From a candidate division FCPU426 bacterium (GTDB taxonomy: Bacteria; Oederibacteriota; Muellerivitia; Muellerivitales; Muellerivitaceae), in assembly GCA_963771075.1 (NCBI GenBank), contig CAVYSE010000028.1:192001-256000 (forward strand): a DNA stretch of 64,000 bases, written 5' to 3'. Positions 11,054 through 19,761 of the stretch are shown here, in pieces. A program made the position numbers and the translations under genes. Each line of letters starts with the position of its first letter. Position 1 is the first letter of the stretch. The notes under the pieces were generated by a model that saw nothing but the letters and a program-made list of their open reading frames with translations, had not been told where the DNA came from and searched no databases.

Positions 11054-14000
11054 TCAGTAATACATCACCGATAGGCGGCTGTTGTTGGAACCATCCGCGT
11101 AAGCCACGAAAGGCACGACGCCGTTGAAGGCCAAGCTAAGGAAAAGGTTCGTGTTCGGGGAAAAACTCGGATTTCCTACTGTCGACCAACTGCCGCCTGA
11201 ATAATCCATGACGGTAGCCTCATCGTTGCTATTGTTCGTAAAGGCCACATAGGGAACCCCGCTGGGGTTAAAGGCCAGGGCCACGTTTCCATAGGTGGCC
11301 GGGGAGAAATCCGCGCTTCCCACCGCCGACCAACTGCCTCCGTTATATTCCATCACGGTCAATTCATCGTTATTGCCGCTATCCTCGAAAGCCAGGTAGG
11401 GGGTATTACCGCTGTTGATGGCCAAAGAGGGGGATATGGCATTTGAAAAAACCGTTCCGCCTACTGTCGTCCAAGTCCCACCGGTATATTCCATTACCTT
11501 GCTCACAAATGAAGTCCCCGAACTTTCAAAGGCCACATAGGGGTTGCCGCTACCGTCGACAGCCAAGGAGGGGTAGAATCCAACCCCCACGGACGTCCCT
11601 CCCACCGTCACCCAATTGCCCCCGCTGTAATCCATCACATAGATCGTGGGCGTACCGGGGTTGGTATCATCCATAAAGGCCACATAGGGCGTCCCACCGC
11701 TCATGACCAGCGTCATCTCCTCCGCTGTGGCGGAAGAAAAATCCAAGCTTCCCACGTAGGACCAGCTCCCGCTATAAGCCATGACCGAGGGCTTGTAAGT
11801 GGCGTCCGAGAAAGCGACATAGGGCGTGTTGTTGTTAAAGGCCAAGGCGAGGCCCCCGTAAATGATTTGTGGCGAAAAATCAGGATTGCCGACCGTGACC
11901 CAGGTCCCCCCCACGTCCTCCACCACGGTGGCTTTATCGGAGTTGTTGTAATCGATAAAGGCTACGTAGGGGTTGTTATTACTGTCGAAAGCCAGTTGTC
12001 CCAATGTAACGCCCCCTGAGGTGAAGTCAGGGCTCCCTTCATAAGTCCAATATGCTCCCGTTGGGGTGGTTGTAGGAGTAACAGTCATGGTCGATGTCGG
12101 ATAATAAGTAACCGTGGGTGTGGGAGTGACGGTCCCGCAACTGATTGTAATGGAGACGGTATTGCTGGTCACCGGCGCCCCGCCGGGTAAATTGACGGTC
12201 GCGTTGTCGGACACAACCTGGCAAAGATCCGATCCCTGCAGGTAATAAGCGGTCAAGAGGAAGGTTATCGGCGCGCAATAACCCGCCGGGAGGTTGTCGA
12301 GCGTAAAAGTCAGGTTAGGCATCTCTTCGGATATAGGGCTCAGGGTAACGGTCGAGGAACCAACTGTTTCAGTCCAGGTACTATAGGGCCCGAAGTACGA
12401 CCAGCTCAGCGGATTGGTGATGTTATCCGTCACCGTCACCCCCATGGCGGGTCCTGTCGATCCGGCGCTGTTGCAAACATTCATGATGAAGGTTATGGGC
12501 GTCCCGTTTTCCATATAACCCGAAGTGGGGCCTAAAGTAGTTTTACTGATGGTCAAGGACACTCCCGGGGTCGGGGTGGACGTCACCGTGAAAGTGGGAG
12601 TAATCGTAACGGAAGAAAGAAGTTGGATATAGGTCAGGGCGTTAGATGTCGCATTCCCGGAGGGCCAGCTGACCGCGCCCTGGTTCACTAAGGTGATACC
12701 GGTACTTCCAAGGACATCGTAATACTGGATCAATTGTGCCGTCATCGTAACGCACCCGGTCCCCAAACTCGGGAACACGAGGGTGTTGTCGCTGGCCGTA
12801 GGCTCGTTCCCCAGACCGTTCATGGGGGTGAAATAACACAAGGTATAGGGTTGGATCGAGTCCCCATAACCCCAACACCCGAAACCAAAGGAATTGGCAC
12901 CTGTGAAATTCTCTGAAATGTTATCTACGACTGTAGTGGGCCCCGTCGTGACCGGCCCGCCCGAGTTGCATAAGGCGAGACTGTAGTTGATGGTCACGGT
13001 ATTATTTGAGGTATTGGTGACCGCGCTGGCCATGGTTTCGGAAAGGGTAAGGTTGGGCGGTCCCAGAAGATTATGGGATTGAGGAATAGTCGCGCATTGC
13101 CGCCAGAAGAGAGCGCCCGTCGAATTGGAGGGGGAGTAATCCCCCGAGCAATTGTTCGAGATAAATGGCAGGTCGGCTCCACTGGTAGGATCGAAAAGAG
13201 TGTTGGCCCATGTAGAGATTGTCACGCCGCTGGAGCAATAGCTAGTGCTGAAACTACCGCCTGTATAGGCTGGGCTGTACCAGGGATTTCCGCTCCCATC
13301 GCTCGCCGGAACAGGCGCAGGGTTTCCAGTAGCTACATAATCCACCGAGATGCCAGTTCCCGAGCTGGTAATCTCCGAATGTCCTCCGCTGGAACAAGTG
13401 ACATCCAGATCCCATGCGGAATAGTTGTTATTGGGGCTGGTGTTTTGGGTTTCAATGGCCAAACAGACTTCGGAGCCCGTCAAGAGGGCGGTCGGCACGC
13501 TCATGCAGGTTGGATTGGCCACGCCGCTGGTTCCAGGCGCGCCAGCGTAGGGGAAGGTCCCAATCAGGGTTCCCCCGATATAAACGACGGAATAGTCGTC
13601 GCTTGACACGCAGATTGAGGCGGCGACGGGACTGCAAAGCGAGGAAGCCGGGGTGGAAGTTACAGTGGGGGTTACCGAGTCTGTCACTGTGGCCGTTGTG
13701 GAAGGAGTGGAACTAATGGTGGCCGTCGGCGTGGCTCCCGCAGGGCAATAATTCGCGTAGATCAAAAAATCACCCGGGTAAGTGGAGGTCACGGAAAAGG
13801 TCGAGGGGAAAGGCCCAAAGGTGACATTATCTAAAACCCCGGCGTTGGGGTTCGAATCACCGACATAACCCAGGTCCAGCGTAGAGCTAGGAGGCCCGAT
13901 GTTGGAAATCTCCCCTTGGGCCGCCAGCCAATAGTTTCCCGCCGCCAAAAAAGTCGGCGTAATGGGGGCATACTGCCACGTTTGGCCATAAACAAAGGAA

Positions 14001-14128
14001 ACGGGGTTGGACTGGACGATGAGGGTTCCGGGTCCCGAACCCGTATCCGAATAGATCGCCATGCTCACTTGCCCCAGGGGGTTGGGATAGGGAGTCGCAA
14101 AGGGGATTTGGGCCACGAGTTCGTTCAC
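11054..14128 (-). CDS. C-terminal part of a large modular surface protein (T/P linkers, Ig/DUF11-like domains, 7-blade beta-propeller)
   Basis: Seven P(Y/F)(V/L)A(F/Y)...W..VG repeats at the C-terminus. The frame stays open upstream to ~14275, so it probably joins the upstream ORF. Confidence 0.8.
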   Translation of the reverse strand: MNELVAQIPFATPYPNPLGQVSMAIYSDTGSGPGTLIVQSNPVSFVYGQTWQYAPITPTFLAAGNYWLAAQGEISNIGPPSSTLDLGYVGDSNPNAGVLDNVTFGPFPSTFSVTSTYPGDFLIYANYCPAGATPTATISSTPSTTATVTDSVTPTVTSTPASSLCSPVAASICVSSDDYSVVYIGGTLIGTFPYAGAPGTSGVANPTCMSVPTALLTGSEVCLAIETQNTSPNNNYSAWDLDVTCSSGGHSEITSSGTGISVDYVATGNPAPVPASDGSGNPWYSPAYTGGSFSTSYCSSGVTISTWANTLFDPTSGADLPFISNNCSGDYSPSNSTGALFWRQCATIPQSHNLLGPPNLTLSETMASAVTNTSNNTVTINYSLALCNSGGPVTTGPTTVVDNISENFTGANSFGFGCWGYGDSIQPYTLCYFTPMNGLGNEPTASDNTLVFPSLGTGCVTMTAQLIQYYDVLGSTGITLVNQGAVSWPSGNATSNALTYIQLLSSVTITPTFTVTSTPTPGVSLTISKTTLGPTSGYMENGTPITFIMNVCNSAGSTGPAMGVTVTDNITNPLSWSYFGPYSTWTETVGSSTVTLSPISEEMPNLTFTLDNLPAGYCAPITFLLTAYYLQGSDLCQVVSDNATVNLPGGAPVTSNTVSITISCGTVTPTPTVTYYPTSTMTVTPTTTPTGAYWTYEGSPDFTSGGVTLGQLAFDSNNNPYVAFIDYNNSDKATVVEDVGGTWVTVGNPDFSPQIIYGGLALAFNNNTPYVAFSDATYKPSVMAYSGSWSYVGSLDFSSATAEEMTLVMSGGTPYVAFMDDTNPGTPTIYVMDYSGGNWVTVGGTSVGVGFYPSLAVDGSGNPYVAFESSGTSFVSKVMEYTGGTWTTVGGTVFSNAISPSLAINSGNTPYLAFEDSGNNDELTVMEYNGGSWSAVGSADFSPATYGNVALAFNPSGVPYVAFTNNSNDEATVMDYSGGSWSTVGNPSFSPNTNLFLSLAFNGVVPFVAYADGSNNSRLSVMYY

Positions 14129-16335
14129 TAAGGCTCCCTGGGGCAGGCTGTATTTGGTGGAGGCGATATTCGACCCCAGGATGGTTCCATAAATACCAAT
14201 AAGGGTATTAACGGATGCTGCGGGATTAGCGCCAAAAGTGGTTGAGGGTCCGGAACAGGGGGGAGGGTAGGCGTATTAACCACTGTTGAATCCAACACGG
14301 GTGTGACTGTGACGGTGGGAGTTATGGTCATGGTCAAGGTGGGGATCGAGGAAGTTTGGGTTAACGTCGCAAGGGGCGTACCTGATAGTGGACAGCCCGA
14401 GGTGTATATCGAAAATAGGTTGCCGGTCGGGCCGGGTGTCGTCACCACCGTTATTTGGGCCGGTATGGATGAATAATTAACTACAACGCCGGCTGAGGTC
14501 ATAACCGCTCCGGTAACGCCGGATGAAAAGAGAATGCCCGCTTTATCGGTGACAAAACCCAACCAAACGTAGGCACCCGCATTCACCGTGACGGGTTGGG
14601 TCAGGGGGGCGGTCATCCATCCTGAACCCACAAAGAGCAGGGGCCCGGTTTGCCCTAAGAGAGAGGTGGGCCCGGTGCCGCTTCCGTTATCGGCATAGAC
14701 CGCTAAATTGAAATCCGTGTAAGTGGCGCCGTAGAGGGGGCTGAAATAGGTGGACATGGTCTGAAGGGTCATGTTTTCAGGTATTTGGAAACGGTTTAAA
14801 TAAAGATCACCGATGACGCTATTCGATGAGGTCTCTGGGTTGACATCGCCCACATTCACCGAACCTGGGCAAAGCGTATAGGTACTCACGGGCGTGTTCA
14901 CCAGGAGAGTGGATGTCGGAGTGACGGTGTTTGTGAAAGTGGTGGTCATGGTGACGGTCCCCTCGACGGTGGGAGTCGCCGTATTCGTAAGGGTAGGTGT
15001 TAGTGTGTTCGCCAGGGTGGCCTGGGGAGACCCCGTCGGGGTGGGCGTGGTGGTATTCGTGGCACCCGAGGGGCAGAACTCCAAGTACATACCCAAATAA
15101 CCTGTGTTGGAGGTGTCACTTCCCGCGTAAGAATAAATGCTTCCGGTATTCTGAGTCAGGTAGGAACCCATCAAACTATCCCCCCCCATCACAATCCCAG
15201 TTCCCAAGGGCTGGATCGCCAGCCAATAACTCGAGCTTGAGTCAACAACCGGGTTATTAATGGCAATGGTGTTCCAGGCTTGTATGGACGAAGTGTTACC
15301 TCCAAAGGCCAAAGCCGTACCCGGCTGGCCTCCGTTATCCGAATAAAGTGCCATCGAGACACCCGCCCCTGGGTTATAAGAAAAGTAATGCAAGACTGGA
15401 ACCGTCCCAGACATTCCAGAGCCAATACTCATGAAATAAACTTCCCCGTTTACCATGGAGATCGGCGAGCTGTAATAAGGTTCGCCTCTCCAATTCCCTC
15501 CAGTGCACACAACGGTGGGCATGTAAACCGTCGTGGTGTTCGTCAAGGTCGCCGTGGTCGTCACCAATGGAGTGGGAGTTAAGGTGGCGGAAAAGAGAGG
15601 CGTGGAGGTGGACGTGATGGTCAAGAAAGAGACGGCGGAGGAAGTGAGGGTGGCCGTCGGGGTCACTGAATGGGTTTGGGTAACCGACGGGGTGACAGTG
15701 GATGTCAGGGTCGCGGGTTGGGTAGGCGTGGGGGTGATAGTCGAAGTCGCGGTAATGGTGTAGGTGGGGGTGGTCGATAAGCAGGGCACGGTCAGGGTCA
15801 CGGGGATGGTGAGGAAATACCCCGCGGAATTCCAAGACACGCTATTGAAGATCACGGAGGACTGGCAGTCGTTGTTCGGGTAATAATAGTTTTCCAACAA
15901 TTGGGTGATGGTCACGCAGGCACCCGCGGCGAGGCCGCTGGGGAAAACCATGGTCGTCCCACTGGCGTTGGGGTTCGGGGAGGTTCCCGTGGAATAGGGA
16001 AAAGTTCCGTTGAAACCCCATCCCAGGAACTGAAACCCGCCGTTATTGGCGGGCATGGTCTCGACCACCGTAACAGGTACCGTGACGGCAGCCCCGCTAT
16101 TGCAAAGACCCATGCACAAGGTGATGGCCAGGCTGGAACCCGAGGTAACGGCACCCCCGCAGGGGTAATACATCAAAGAAACCCCCAAACTGGGGACAAC
16201 CGGGGTGTAGGCGACGGTAGCAGTTGGCGATTGGTTGGTGGGTTGGGTGGGTAATATGGATCGGTTACAGCTGATGCTGCCCAGAATCGCCAGGCCGACA
16301 AACATAAACAACGAGGAGATATTAAGCTTTGACAT
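14128..16335 (-). CDS. N-terminal part of a large Thr/Pro-rich surface lipoprotein (frameshift at ~14260)
   Basis: SD GGAGG before ATG 16335, signal ending LGSISC, T/P linkers and repeated A(L/V/I)Y(S/A)D.G..P domains also present in the downstream ORF. Confidence 0.8.
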   Translation of the reverse strand: MSKLNISSLFMFVGLAILGSISCNRSILPTQPTNQSPTATVAYTPVVPSLGVSLMYYPCGGAVTSGSSLAITLCMGLCNSGAAVTVPVTVVETMPANNGGFQFLGWGFNGTFPYSTGTSPNPNASGTTMVFPSGLAAGACVTITQLLENYYYPNNDCQSSVIFNSVSWNSAGYFLTIPVTLTVPCLSTTPTYTITATSTITPTPTQPATLTSTVTPSVTQTHSVTPTATLTSSAVSFLTITSTSTPLFSATLTPTPLVTTTATLTNTTTVYMPTVVCTGGNWRGEPYYSSPISMVNGEVYFMSIGSGMSGTVPVLHYFSYNPGAGVSMALYSDNGGQPGTALAFGGNTSSIQAWNTIAINNPVVDSSSSYWLAIQPLGTGIVMGGDSLMGSYLTQNTGSIYSYAGSDTSNTGYLGMYLEFCPSGATNTTTPTPTGSPQATLANTLTPTLTNTATPTVEGTVTMTTTFTNTVTPTSTLLVNTPVSTYTLCPGSVNVGDVNPETSSNSVIGDLYLNRFQIPENMTLQTMSTYFSPLYGATYTDFNLAVYADNGSGTGPTSLLGQTGPLLFVGSGWMTAPLTQPVTVNAGAYVWLGFVTDKAGILFSSGVTGAVMTSAGVVVNYSSIPAQITVVTTPGPTGNLFSIYTSGCPLSGTPLATLTQTSSIPTLTMTITPTVTVTPVLDSTVVNTPTLPPVPDPQPLLALIPQHPLIPLLVFMEPSWGRISPPPNTACPREP

Positions 16336-16632
16336 CGATGCCTCCAAAACCATATTACCAGTTTTCAAGATTTCCCCTGCCTTATAGCGTTATCCAGTGG
16401 CCTTTTATTCCAAATTTCATTACCTAAACTTTTTTCAGGGATTTCACCATAAAAACAGCCCTTTATAGTGATTGATGAGGACTTTTTATTTCATTCAAAC
16501 CAAAAATATTCTTATGGTTTTTCACATCCACAAAGGCCGGTGTGCTTTTAATATATGGAAGGACCCTAAGTTTTATCGGACGGGTTGAACCCCTCCCGGC
16601 TTATGGACCCCATTTATCCTTTGGATCGGCTT

Positions 16633-16995
16633 ATGAAACCACCATTCTTTAAAACCTGGGTTTGGCTTTTTCTTTTCCTTCTGACCGCGCTGTCCACCTC
16701 TGCCCTGCAAACTCCCGCTACTGGAACCTGTTTTGTTTACCCCTCCCCAGCCACCGGAAACCAGGCCTATGTGGTTTTCAACATGCCCCAAAGCGGGACC
16801 GCGACGGTTTGGGTCTACAACGAGGCCGGAGACCTGGCGACCGTGGTGGATCAATATGAAACGGCGGGTGTTCAGCAAACCTCGCTGGACCTCACCTACT
16901 TCCATCGGGGGATTTATCTCTGCCGGGTGACGCTTAACTTTGACGCGGGAGGAAACCAAACACTTCCCATTTTCAAGTTCATGGTTCGCCGTTGA
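16633..16995 (+). CDS. Small secreted protein made only of a T9SS type-A CTD-like domain
   Basis: Signal peptide followed by FVYPSPA...VWVYNEAGD...LD....RGIYLCRV...FKFMVRR, matching the YPNP/IY..G/G.Y/K.. CTD pattern. Confidence 0.7.
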   Translation: MKPPFFKTWVWLFLFLLTALSTSALQTPATGTCFVYPSPATGNQAYVVFNMPQSGTATVWVYNEAGDLATVVDQYETAGVQQTSLDLTYFHRGIYLCRVTLNFDAGGNQTLPIFKFMVRR

Positions 16996-18335
16996 TCTAC
17001 CAGCGGGTTTTCTCCCGGTTCCGAAGAAACTGTTTTTCCATACTTCTGGTAACGCTATTTCTTTTAGTGCCGCTGAAGCCCGCTCAATCCACGGTATACA
17101 GCACTTCGGAACTGCCGGATCCCTTGGAAGATGTGGGCCATTCTCCCCGGGCCGCTGCCATGGCCTCGGCCTTCACCGCCTCCCAAGGCACGGCCGATTC
17201 CATCTATTGGAACCCCGCCGGATTGGCGACTATTCCAACGTTCCAACTCTCACTCGTCCACCAAAGCTGGTACAGCGGAATTTTCAGGGAAAATATCACG
17301 GCCGCTTTTCCCGTCAATGATTTCGGCTCGTTCGGGTTGGGCGCGGATTACACCGGTTTCGGCACCCTTCAGGGCTATGACGGCAACGGCGACCCCACCA
17401 CCTCCTACCAACCCTACCGTTATTCCCTTTCCATTGGATGGGGAACCCAGATTATCCCTTCCCTCGCGGCCGGGTGGGTCGCCACGAGCCGTATGGATTT
17501 TCAATCCTCCGATGATCAATCCCTTTCCGGCTATCTTTCAGCCGGGTTTTTGTGGTGCCCATGGACCCCCTTCCGCGTGGGTGCCTTTTATTCCTTCCTG
17601 AATTCGGACGCTTTAGCCGGGATGGGCCTGCTCAAAATAGGCGGTTCCTGGTCCCCTGTTTTACTCAAGGATAGCCCCACCTTGTTTCTTTTGGATTTTT
17701 CCCTTCCCCCCTATGGGGTCTATTCCCTTCAAGGGGGGATGGAACAGAATCTCTGGGAAAACTTTTACGCCCGTGCGGGTTACCAGTGGGAATGGGACAA
17801 TAACGAAATCCCCGGTTTAAGGGGCATCACGGCCGGGGTGGGCATCCGTTTGGAGGACTGGGGATTGGATTACGCCTTTATTCCCTACGGCGACCTGGGC
17901 ACTTCCCAAACCCTGGGTTTGACCTATTTTTTCCCAGCCCCATTGGCTTCTCCCGCGATTCCCGCCTCTCCCCTACCCCCGAAACCCAAAACCACGATTG
18001 CACCCGGCGCGGCCTTTAAACCGGCCGAATCCCTGCTTCCGGGCGACAAATTGGTCAATGTGCAGGTTAATATCCAGCTGCCCCAAGACTCGGGTGAAGA
18101 GCCCCCCAGCCCGGTAGACCCCCAAATAAAGGAAGCCATTAGCCTGTTGGTTCAACAAGTGTCTAAAAATCCAAAGGATCCACAGGGCTGGAATAACTTG
18201 GGTAACCTATACTGGAAGATAGGCCGGAAGGATTTCGCGGCCCAATGTTTCGAGGAAATTCTCCAGTTACAACCTGCCAACCAGGCCCTGAAAGACTGGC
18301 TGGATCATTACAAAAAAGCGCATGCCAACAACTAA
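16992..18335 (+). CDS. PorV/PorQ-family outer-membrane barrel with Pro-rich linker and C-terminal TPR
   Basis: SPRAAAMASAFTA...SIYWNPAGLA, LSLVHQSW, GITAGVG and LDYAFIPYGDLGTSQ motifs; TPR DPQGWNNLGNLY. 4-nt overlap with the upstream gene. Confidence 0.8.
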   Translation: MIYQRVFSRFRRNCFSILLVTLFLLVPLKPAQSTVYSTSELPDPLEDVGHSPRAAAMASAFTASQGTADSIYWNPAGLATIPTFQLSLVHQSWYSGIFRENITAAFPVNDFGSFGLGADYTGFGTLQGYDGNGDPTTSYQPYRYSLSIGWGTQIIPSLAAGWVATSRMDFQSSDDQSLSGYLSAGFLWCPWTPFRVGAFYSFLNSDALAGMGLLKIGGSWSPVLLKDSPTLFLLDFSLPPYGVYSLQGGMEQNLWENFYARAGYQWEWDNNEIPGLRGITAGVGIRLEDWGLDYAFIPYGDLGTSQTLGLTYFFPAPLASPAIPASPLPPKPKTTIAPGAAFKPAESLLPGDKLVNVQVNIQLPQDSGEEPPSPVDPQIKEAISLLVQQVSKNPKDPQGWNNLGNLYWKIGRKDFAAQCFEEILQLQPANQALKDWLDHYKKAHANN

Positions 18336-18388
18336 CCCGGGGATGCGAATAAAATGCCCCCCCGCGACACTATAAGGAAAGGGTAGAA

Positions 18389-18967
18389 ATGCCAGAGGAA
18401 AAGGACCTGGTCCAGCGAATCCTCTCGGGTGACCGGGAGGCCCAAGACCTCTTCTACCGTGAATACTCCCACCGGTTGTTCCCGGTCTGCGTGCATTTCC
18501 TTGGAACGGGCGATTCGGACGCCGAGGATGTCGTGCAAGACACCTTCCTGGTCGCCTGGCGCAAACTCGGGGGTTTCCGCTTCGAATCGAGCCTTTACAC
18601 CTGGCTCAACCATATCTGCGTGAACCTCTGTTACGAAAGGCTCCGGAAACGCAAAAAAAACCTGGTTTCACTTGAAGAGGACCTGGAAAAGCTAACCCAG
18701 CCCCACAAGGGCTGGGTTCAAAAGAAGAAAGCCGAGGAGGAAGACGAGGAAAAAAAGGCCCTTTTGGTCCGGCTCAATCGGATCATCGATTCGATGGGAG
18801 AAAATTGCAGGCAGATACTGGTCCTGCGGGACCGCGAGGGGCAAAGCTACATCGATTTGGCCAGGAACTTAAAAATCCCGCCCGGAACGGTGATGTCCCA
18901 ACTGGCCCGGTGCCGGAAGGCCGTGTGGCATTTGATGCGAAATGAATTAAAGGAAGCGAAACCGTGA
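18389..18967 (+). CDS. ECF sigma-70 family RNA polymerase sigma factor
   Basis: DAEDVVQDTF..AW, SLYTWL..I..N and region 4 GTVMSQLARCR. Confidence 0.93.
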   Translation: MPEEKDLVQRILSGDREAQDLFYREYSHRLFPVCVHFLGTGDSDAEDVVQDTFLVAWRKLGGFRFESSLYTWLNHICVNLCYERLRKRKKNLVSLEEDLEKLTQPHKGWVQKKKAEEEDEEKKALLVRLNRIIDSMGENCRQILVLRDREGQSYIDLARNLKIPPGTVMSQLARCRKAVWHLMRNELKEAKP

Positions 18968-19761
18968 TGGATCTGGTGGAAGAATATTTCAAGCGCGACT
19001 TGAGCGCCTCCGAGGAGACCCAACTGGCCAAGTTATTGGCCGGGTCGCCCGAGGCCGCCCAAAAGATGGCCGAGGGGATGGCCACACTCTTCCGCGCGGG
19101 CGGCGAGGCTGAACCCGCCTGGCCCGGGAAACCCCTGCCCCTCAGCCGGTGGACCGTCTCCGGTTCCTGGATCAAGATTGCTGTCTTTGCCCTGCTCAAC
19201 CTGGCCTTGATCGGCCTTTTGATCTACCTGATCCTCGGCTTTTTAAAGGCCCATGTCTCCACTCCCGCTCCCAAAGCCCAAGTGGAAGTCTCAACCCTGG
19301 TCCTGGACGAACCGGCTAAGGATGTCCGTAAGGCCGCATCGCGAAAGGCCTCGCCCCCGCCGGCCTCAAAACAAATGGAAGCCTCCGCTCCTTTCCTTCC
19401 TCCCCTTCCGGTCGAGGGGCCTAACTCCCAATCGGCCCTTCCGGCGCCCTCCTCGAACGCGGAGCCCGCCTCCCCCGCGGTCCCTCCCATGACAGCCTCG
19501 GGCAGGCAGTTCGAACAGCTTTCGGTGGTCATCAACAACCCCGAGGCCGGCCTGGCCACCGTCAAGGTCTACAACGCCGATCACGTCCTTGTCCGCCGGC
19601 TCTTTACCGGCATCCTTCCCGCCGGGACCCAGACCCTCGTTTGGGACGGCCGTACCGAGGAGGGCGCCGCCGCGCCTGCGGGAACCTACCAAATGGAAGT
19701 CCAATCCGGGGAAAAGATCATCCAGAGCGAGATCAAAATCAAGGCGGGTGACAACCCCTAA
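18964..19761 (+). CDS. Putative anti-sigma factor: one TM helix, Pro/Ala linker, C-terminal FlgD-Ig/CTD-like domain
   Basis: GTGA coupling to the sigma gene; N-terminal LVEEYF..DLS..EE..L..LL; TM helix; VKVYNAD..LVRRL...LVWDGR..G..APAGTY. Confidence 0.75.
   Translation: MMDLVEEYFKRDLSASEETQLAKLLAGSPEAAQKMAEGMATLFRAGGEAEPAWPGKPLPLSRWTVSGSWIKIAVFALLNLALIGLLIYLILGFLKAHVSTPAPKAQVEVSTLVLDEPAKDVRKAASRKASPPPASKQMEASAPFLPPLPVEGPNSQSALPAPSSNAEPASPAVPPMTASGRQFEQLSVVINNPEAGLATVKVYNADHVLVRRLFTGILPAGTQTLVWDGRTEEGAAAPAGTYQMEVQSGEKIIQSEIKIKAGDNP

Follow-up and report, generated by a model that had tools for sequence, protein, structure and literature searches.

We analyzed a 64,000-nt stretch of a candidate division FCPU426 bacterium genome (contig CAVYSE010000028.1 of assembly GCA_963771075.1, positions 192,001 to 256,000 of the forward strand; hereafter the window, numbered 1 to 64,000), in which four co-oriented genes form a compact cassette that joins relatives of type IX secretion system (T9SS) components to an extracytoplasmic function (ECF) sigma factor and may act as a signaling switch across the cell envelope. 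Gene 1 runs on the forward strand from 16633 (ATG) to 16995 (TGA) and encodes a 120-amino-acid (aa) protein consisting of a signal peptide and a bare type-A T9SS C-terminal domain (CTD), with no cargo. It overlaps, in the sequence TTGA, the TTG-initiated gene 2 (16992 to 18335, forward strand; 447 aa), which encodes a PorV/FadL-type barrel. A 53-nt gap (18336 to 18388) separates this pair from gene 3 (18389 to 18967, forward strand; 192 aa), an ECF sigma factor of a lineage-specific group, and gene 3 in turn overlaps, in GTGA, the GTG-initiated gene 4 (18964 to 19761, forward strand; 265 aa), a predicted anti-sigma factor. A first-pass annotation of this DNA had described the same arrangement of four genes, two 4-nt overlaps, and a 53-nt gap, and our coordinates, strand, and spacing all agree with it.

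Domain identities of the four proteins

Gene 1 has the features of a type-A CTD protein, namely, a signal peptide (read by eye), a sorting domain that exceeds the curated cut-offs of both PF18962 (Por_Secre_tail; 28.6 versus 27 bits) and TIGR04183 (28.7 versus 23), and a nearly invariant terminal lysine (Lys115), in keeping with its first description; aligned against PDB sequences, it gave no match below E 0.2. The possibility that it is a truncated fragment of a longer gene can be set aside because signal-peptide-plus-CTD open reading frames (ORFs) of 118 to 161 aa recur in 16 cassettes of identical gene order, because silent changes are in excess (63 to 64 of 92 residues are identical to those of two same-genus orthologues, and 31 to 33 of those codons are silently changed), and because the 16 cargo-less rows of a 43-row barrel tree fall on one side of a branch. 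That branch has little support (45/7), and the long row L062 lies at the base of the cargo-less side; the inner 13 rows are supported at 100/99. The divergent lineage at locus L074 has another ORF of this kind, and clusters of 112- to 136-aa CTD-only proteins, which may include fragments, occur in Bacteroidota, Cloacimonadota, and Ignavibacteriota (scores of 0.93 to 0.94). A 146-aa CTD ORF on contig C20 of the host genome is unlike gene 1 and is apparently the last part of a large cargo gene whose reading frame is broken.

The AlphaFold model of gene 2 comprises an N-terminal hatch, 14 strands (residues 85 to 313), a disordered linker, and four helices. Its top Foldseek matches are PorV (6h3i_F, E 1.4e-11) and 8gl6_F, and the sequence itself matches PorV at E 2.9e-12. 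The predicted 14-stranded FadL-like fold and an NF033709 score of 89.6, at the line of the cut-off of 90, place the protein in the PorV/PorQ family, and the C-terminal tetratricopeptide repeat (TPR) of the earlier description is also present. Because the predicted number of strands is even, the C-terminal tail, made up of a proline linker, a lone beta-strand, and the TPR, is predicted to lie on the periplasmic side. The lone strand (18060 to 18083, forward strand; V357-x-V-x-F/I-x-L-P364) sits within the linker and is amphipathic, with its alternate positions hydrophobic in 43, 41, 43, and 43 of 44 tails, and its confidence score (pLDDT) in the single-chain model is below 50. We regard it as a candidate docking strand for the immunoglobulin-like (Ig) domain of the anti-sigma factor. 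An identification with strand B of the CTD was rejected, as the profile match, although its register agreed, fell short of significance (probability 0.6%, E 0.1).

The distribution of this tail follows that of the anti-sigma Ig domain. Profile searches gave 113 tail matches in 41 genomes, of which 112 were used after a second repeat within one protein was dropped. Of 87 strand-bearing tails, 73 lay at most 10 kb from a same-strand anti-sigma Ig domain, compared with 0 of 25 plain TPR matches; from the other side, 74 of 99 anti-sigma Ig domains have a strand-bearing tail nearby, and many of the misses fall near contig starts. By these profile counts, the strand-TPR tail is restricted to cassette barrels.

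Gene 3 contains sigma regions 2 and 4 (TIGR02937, 88.4 versus 42.9) and is thus an ECF sigma factor as first annotated; apart from the superfamily, no specific NCBIfam sigma family scored above its cut-off. The architecture described for gene 4 also held, with a single hydrophobic transmembrane (TM) helix at about residues 72 to 94, a Pro/Ala linker, and a C-terminal FlgD-type Ig domain (FlgD_ig, 45.4 versus 27); its N-terminal domain is conserved. Its position immediately after the sigma gene, the overlap, the conserved N-terminal domain, and the one TM helix are consistent with a role as anti-sigma factor. Among 157 full-length homologues, the linker has a median length of 88 aa (5 to 95% range, 49 to 123), which by its length could be enough to cross the periplasm. 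The modeled Ig sandwich is closest to FlgD (Z 8.4, root mean square deviation 3.0, 80 aligned), with further matches to PorU (Z 7.6) and CTDs (6.1 to 6.3) among many rows of middling Z, and the domain is distantly related to gene 1 (86%). Neither gene 2 nor gene 4 had a FecR or TonB-receptor Pfam match at E up to 0.1.

Conservation, promoter motif, and genomic setting

The cassette is real and conserved. Seeding with the sigma factor alone gave 41 loci (E up to 4e-27), and 32 of them contain the complete four-part set, so that the synteny supposed at first pass holds in relatives as one conserved unit. The incomplete loci comprise five truncated by a contig end, one with sigma, anti-sigma, and barrel genes in which the CTD gene was not called, and three (L060, L077, and L086) with the sigma and anti-sigma genes only; the weak CTD at L074 was judged by eye. 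A further 39 loci yielded two partial matches of the same sigma group (L125, complete, and L106, at a contig end) and 37 distant-ECF loci with none of the other three parts. Three gene orders occur among 46 complete cassettes, with the four parts constant: CTD-barrel-ECF-anti-sigma (16 cargo-less and 3 cargo-bearing cassettes), ECF-anti-sigma-CTD-barrel (14), and ECF-anti-sigma-barrel-CTD (13). A histidine kinase or receiver gene is not a recurring part of these layouts. The host genome itself has five copies of the four-part cassette (contigs C28, C11, C21, C20, and C3) and a sixth sigma factor of the group (C5) that is interrupted by an insertion-like element. Gene 4 found matches in all 24 same-family genomes; outside the family, among the matches listed, its similarity was confined to the Ig domain of other proteins, and a profile of the anti-sigma Ig domain (E 1e-14) hit 24 of 24 genomes within the family and 1 of 16 outside it. 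With the anti-sigma profile (E up to 1e-30), 235 cluster representatives were retrieved, including some long FlgD-repeat proteins.

Three features of the locus were absent from the first-pass annotation: the lone strand described above, a predicted ECF promoter in the 53-nt gap, and two copies of the same motif pointing toward a divergent gene. The motif, GGAATAA-N15-CACTA, occurs under a permissive rule in the 90 nt upstream of 53 of 60 sigma genes, and we scored it with a matrix trained on sigma-upstream sites of other genomes only, the host genome excluded. The predicted autoregulatory promoter (18346 to 18373, forward strand; -35 CGAATAA, -10 CACTAT) scores 18.2 bits. On the reverse strand, two predicted target promoters face a divergent lipoprotein gene: GGAATAA...CGCTAT at 16384 to 16411, whose 18.2 bits were reached by 0 of 40 shuffles, and GAAATAA...CACTAT at 16465 to 16492 (16.8 bits). 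The available sections of an ECF classification (PMC7826278) list GGAATAAA as the -35 element of ECF26 and ECF207, with different -10 elements. A scan for sigma-70 promoters and terminators stayed at chance level.

The same arrangement recurs across the group. Upstream of gene 1, we scanned 16 cargo-less cassettes (17 scan segments; L038 and L074 left out), of which 15 have a divergent lipoprotein-like gene; in 13 of these 15, the best site faces that gene and exceeds all 40 shuffles, and in the remaining 2 its score was reached by 2 of 40 shuffles. L062, the cargo-less cassette without such a gene, has no site, and toward the CTD gene the best motif score in cargo-less cassettes was at most 8.2. 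Cargo cassettes with a next gene on the same strand have a site of at least 12 bits before it in 15 of 22 cases (antisense, 1 of 22). A genome-wide regulon was considered and rejected, since at 12 bits sites precede 3 of 112 CTD genes, 1 of 20 lipoprotein genes, and 45 of 3753 others, with antisense counts of 2, 0, and 43. Control of the export machine by the sigma factor was likewise discarded: the best scores were 0.9 upstream of the SprA-like gene and 9.0 upstream of skp, and none of 13 other genes for barrels or cargo had a site above 11.5. The strongest motif copies away from cassettes lie before genes for a 1617-aa CTD protein (G000:C18:44819) and a 305-aa lipoprotein-like protein (C6:7887), both of them possible distant targets.

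The predicted output of the cassette in the window is a divergent Thr-rich lipoprotein gene (11054 to 16368, reverse strand) with a lipobox-like ILGSISC, no CTD, and an orthologue at L031. It is present as two ORFs (746 and 1024 aa) whose frames meet near 14128 to 14250 and which appear to be a single gene interrupted by a frame change; frame breaks elsewhere in the assembly (the SprA-like gene, the C20 cargo gene, and a C11 glycanase) suggest sequencing indels. The divergent genes of other cargo-less cassettes are mostly Thr-rich predicted lipoproteins as well, with varying heads (serpin, NHL propeller, or unknown; thioredoxin occurs in a second gene), and none has a CTD match; 11 of 13 fit the lipobox pattern, and in the other 2 and in L034 the cysteine was located by eye. 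In cargo-bearing cassettes, cargo type goes with the type of the adjacent target, as with glycan-binding cargo beside glycanases: PA14-CBM9 cargo (assigned by Pfam scan in L063 and L072 and by N-terminal likeness in L068, L069, L078, L087, and L089) lies upstream of CBM3, GH30, GH44, or malectin proteins in 6 of 7 cassettes, NHL-type cargo lies upstream of S8 or kumamolisin proteases or NHL proteins, and in L073 an IgGFc-binding cargo lies upstream of a serpin. Serpin lipoprotein genes occur in or beside cassettes at G000:C21:63183-69510, L036:4137-5468, and L073:8796-9278, and given these serpins, surface protease attack could be one signal. Some loci depart from the common layout. The same-genus orthologous locus L033 (G002:C9:82000-98000) has the ECF and anti-sigma genes but no CTD gene, barrel gene, or divergent lipoprotein gene; at L060:7346-7894 an anti-sigma gene without an Ig domain stands beside an ECF gene with the promoter motif, in a flank with no barrel or CTD gene; and at L046:11445-12410 a tandem repeat array separates the CTD gene from the divergent lipoprotein gene.

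Searches of the host genome returned 25 PorV-family matches (at about 20 places) and 68 FlgD_ig matches, and 112 of its ORFs end in a CTD-like region. Besides the cassette barrels, it encodes about 15 others of the PorV family (G000:C7, C11, C14, and C18), several directly behind a CTD cargo gene, and by eye the tails of the other barrels vary (Fn3-like, OmpA-like, FlgD-like, or TPR). Of the T9SS genes that the first-pass annotation pointed to, a SprA-like gene is present, and homologues of GldL, GldM, or GldN were not detected, with weak controls. The SprA-like gene (about 2000 aa) gives collinear matches in 39 of 41 related genomes, in 2 of them above the cut-off; the host copy (G000:C20:131583-137533) is split into two ORFs, is a single frame in most relatives, and lies near skp/lpxD/lpxC/lpxA, followed by a gene for a 1539-aa CTD protein. 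For the PorU sortase, NF033707 matched only its C-terminal domain region, and the peptidase domain PF01364 was found neither here nor in the control.

A putative trans-envelope switch and its alternatives

We put at about 0.5 the probability that the four-gene cassette is a trans-envelope signaling switch built from type IX secretion parts, a proposal that draws on the four-part linkage, the domain identities, the cassette-restricted strand, and the positions of the promoter motif, all established by sequence comparison and prediction tools. The CTD protein would be exported through the SprA-like translocon and come to rest on the extracellular loops of the PorV-like barrel of its cassette, by analogy with Flavobacterium johnsoniae, in which type-A CTDs, with their almost invariant terminal lysine, are described as binding the extracellular loops of PorV (PMC10994853, available sections). 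The strand-plus-TPR tail of the barrel would hold, in the periplasm, the Ig domain of the inner-membrane anti-sigma factor, and the ECF sigma factor would be released by a change at the barrel, whether of its load or of the cargo ligand, presumably with proteolysis of the anti-sigma factor. Once free, the sigma factor would transcribe its own gene, amplifying the response, together with the neighboring gene for a surface protein. Where a cassette has cargo, that cargo probably does the sensing (PA14-CBM9 beside glycanases, NHL beside proteases). In the cargo-less copy, the bare CTD would probably report only the loading of the barrel, that is, that export is working and the surface has not been stripped, and the output would be a lipid-anchored surface protein without a CTD. 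The link from T9SS-like parts to sigma release that the first-pass annotation had drawn is therefore plausible, because the unit is conserved, the cargo-less CTD protein is real, and a SprA-like translocon gene is present; export sensing as its general purpose is weakened by the 30 of 46 complete cassettes that have a cargo-bearing CTD protein and by the lack of a promoter motif before the SprA-like gene and other barrels.

More tentatively, and with less than even odds, the cassettes may represent a new modular signaling class in which shuttle barrels double as receptors, a swappable CTD-tethered protein serves as sensor, and a tail strand docks the Ig domain of the anti-sigma factor, with the cargo-less version reporting the state of the export route and switching on lipoprotein-anchored substitutes and with the same logic present separately in Bacteroidota.

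Several observations weigh against the proposed switch. Linkage is silent on which proteins touch, and the tail and Ig counts are not independent because the strand and Ig profiles were built partly from the counted loci, whose members are related. A mirror-distance test gave a correlation of 0.46 between tail and Ig domain, within the 0.37 to 0.61 of other cassette pairs, and the motif is not enriched genome-wide (35 matches versus 30 in a reversed control). The bare CTD has no obvious ligand site. Release from the translocon in Flavobacterium requires the motor (PMC10994853, in the text available), and in the present genomes the motor genes were not found, so that CTD export itself is something we infer: GldL scored above its cut-off in 0 of 41 genomes (1 weak match) and GldM was not found in the host genome, in both cases with no control genome above the cut-off; GldN was not found, and control genomes also had no match; divergent forms of these genes are possible. 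Finally, a CTD in Porphyromonas gingivalis is reported, in the accessible part of PMC12152298, to signal from the periplasm without PorV.

This last point fits an arrangement like that of PorA, in which a CTD protein, present in the periplasm because export has stalled, would itself bind the Ig domain of the anti-sigma factor and the barrel would be only a sink for it. The same text describes activation of PorY-PorX-SigP from the periplasm by the PorA CTD alone, and a CTD without cargo would be such a ligand reduced to its minimum; in the cargo-less subtype, moreover, gene 1 and the barrel gene lie upstream of the sigma promoter and would hence be made independently of the sigma factor. Such backlog sensing leaves unexplained the conserved periplasmic strand-TPR tail of cassette barrels and the tracking of cargo and target, and it sits poorly with export genes that have no promoter motif; we consider it unlikely, if the best placed of the alternatives. 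Less probable again is the competition that the first-pass annotation had envisaged, whereby the Ig domain of the anti-sigma factor would double as a secretion signal, engaging the translocon or the CTD site of the barrel in competition with a free CTD. The domain does lie at or near the C terminus with a fold like that of FlgD, PorU, and CTD domains, and a terminal Lys motif is present in 106 of 156 anti-sigma homologues, but that motif is missing in 11 of 16 cargo-less cassettes, including gene 4, which also has no YPNP-type first strand; a YPNP-like motif occurs in 10 of 157 anti-sigma homologues versus 37 of 43 cassette CTDs. FlgD-type domains are also found inside predicted periplasmic barrel tails of the host genome, so the fold is not solely a secretion signal, and a motor to pull the Ig domain was not found.

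A purely mechanical role seems about as improbable as competition. The barrel tail and anti-sigma factor would here form a split tether of the Dma type that links the membranes and senses envelope distance or damage, the CTD protein merely stabilizing the barrel. Dma1 is described as crossing both membranes by way of a disordered linker (PMC10927553, available text), some ECF21 subgroups are listed as encoding anti-sigma factor and barrel separately (PMC7826278, in the sections covered), and the cargo-less version would suit such a tether well; the 30 cargo-bearing cassettes, with their varied cargo and its match to the target, suggest specific ligands instead, and a single stress would hardly call for four to five paralogues in each genome. 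It is very improbable that there is no physical coupling at all and that an ordinary ECF/anti-sigma pair simply stands beside a cargo-barrel pair under its control. Sigma-less cargo-barrel pairs are common in the host genome, and at four loci (L033, L060, L077, and L086) the barrel and CTD gene are jointly absent from the ECF/anti-sigma pair, although this joint absence also speaks for the proposed switch. Against this reading, the sigma promoter of cargo-less cassettes lies downstream of the CTD and barrel genes, which themselves have no motif and therefore are apparently not regulated by the sigma factor, yet remain linked to it, and the strand-TPR tail is confined to cassette barrels.

Relation to known signaling systems

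To our knowledge, only a few routes, such as TonB receptors and Dma proteins, pass a surface signal to an ECF sigma factor in diderms. If the proposed switch is correct, the cassette adds a route assembled from T9SS components whose sensor heads can be exchanged, in a lineage that has a SprA-like translocon, many PorV paralogues, and no detected motor genes and in which it may be asked what drives the export of CTD proteins in place of GldLM. With a specific promoter, its target genes, and a strand of 8 residues as the candidate for docking, the idea is testable with purified domains. The passages searched in the ECF classification (PMC7826278) contain no FlgD, PorV-type, or sorting-domain entry, and our literature searches, in which subscription journals were little covered, found no paper describing the cassette, which is apparently undescribed in print and a variant of trans-envelope ECF signaling.

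A comparable unit exists in Bacteroidota, where look-alikes of gene 4, taken as leads, are TM proteins with CHU_C or Por_Secre_tail domains (scores of 0.85 to 0.87). Among 11 stretches around mid-length CHU_C ORFs in four genomes, one (L142:124-3131, G044:C17) encodes, in this order, an ECF sigma factor, a TM protein of 433 aa that has PKD domains and ends in a type-B CTD-like region, and a PorP/SprF barrel. The three closest flanked metagenome loci share this order, and a fourth ends after the second gene (these loci include L174, L176, and L177). The 433-aa protein has at least 120 near-full-length homologues, and a Bacteroidota-wide search with it mostly returned the PKD/CTD ends of large cargo; of 30 loci with related ECF sigma factors, 3 have a CHU_C-tipped neighbor (L254, which is L142 itself, L271, and L280), and several others resemble Dma-type barrel fusions. 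This putative unit supports a general link between anti-sigma factors and T9SS shuttles, also lends some weight to the competition discussed above, and points to an overlooked Bacteroidota family of ECF sigma factor, CTD-tipped TM protein, and PorP/SprF barrel.

In FecI/FecR/FecA cell-surface signaling, an outer-membrane barrel acts through a periplasmic coupling domain and a TM anti-sigma factor on an ECF sigma factor with adjacent, ligand-specific targets. The cassette has the same component roles (barrel, coupling element, TM anti-sigma factor, ECF sigma factor, and neighboring targets) but no TonB-dependent receptor, FecR, or N-terminal signaling domain; its barrel is 14-stranded, its coupling element is a C-terminal tail, and its sensor is an exchangeable CTD-tethered protein. 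With PorA-PorY/PorX-SigP of P. gingivalis, as described in the available parts of PMC7712824 and PMC12152298, it shares a small CTD protein, PorV, an ECF sigma factor, and a CTD as signal; that system takes a histidine kinase route and controls T9SS genes, whereas the cassette has an anti-sigma factor and a barrel of its own, includes no kinase, and has its target close by. Type-B CTD cargo with a cognate PorP/SprF shuttle is similar in that the cargo gene adjoins its own barrel gene (PMC12618676, accessible text), but the cassette pairs a type-A-like CTD with a PorV-family barrel and ties both to a sigma switch. The accessible account of Dma/ECF21 signaling (PMC10927553) describes an ECF sigma factor and a TM anti-sigma factor whose long disordered periplasmic linker reaches an outer-membrane barrel, with a signal proposed to originate at the outer membrane. 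The Dma barrel is fused and 8-stranded, whereas that of the cassette is a separate, 14-stranded PorV-type barrel with a strand-TPR tail; the cassette anti-sigma factor ends in a FlgD-type Ig domain rather than a barrel, its host genomes have no detected Bacteroidota motor genes, and the CTD protein is a fourth part.

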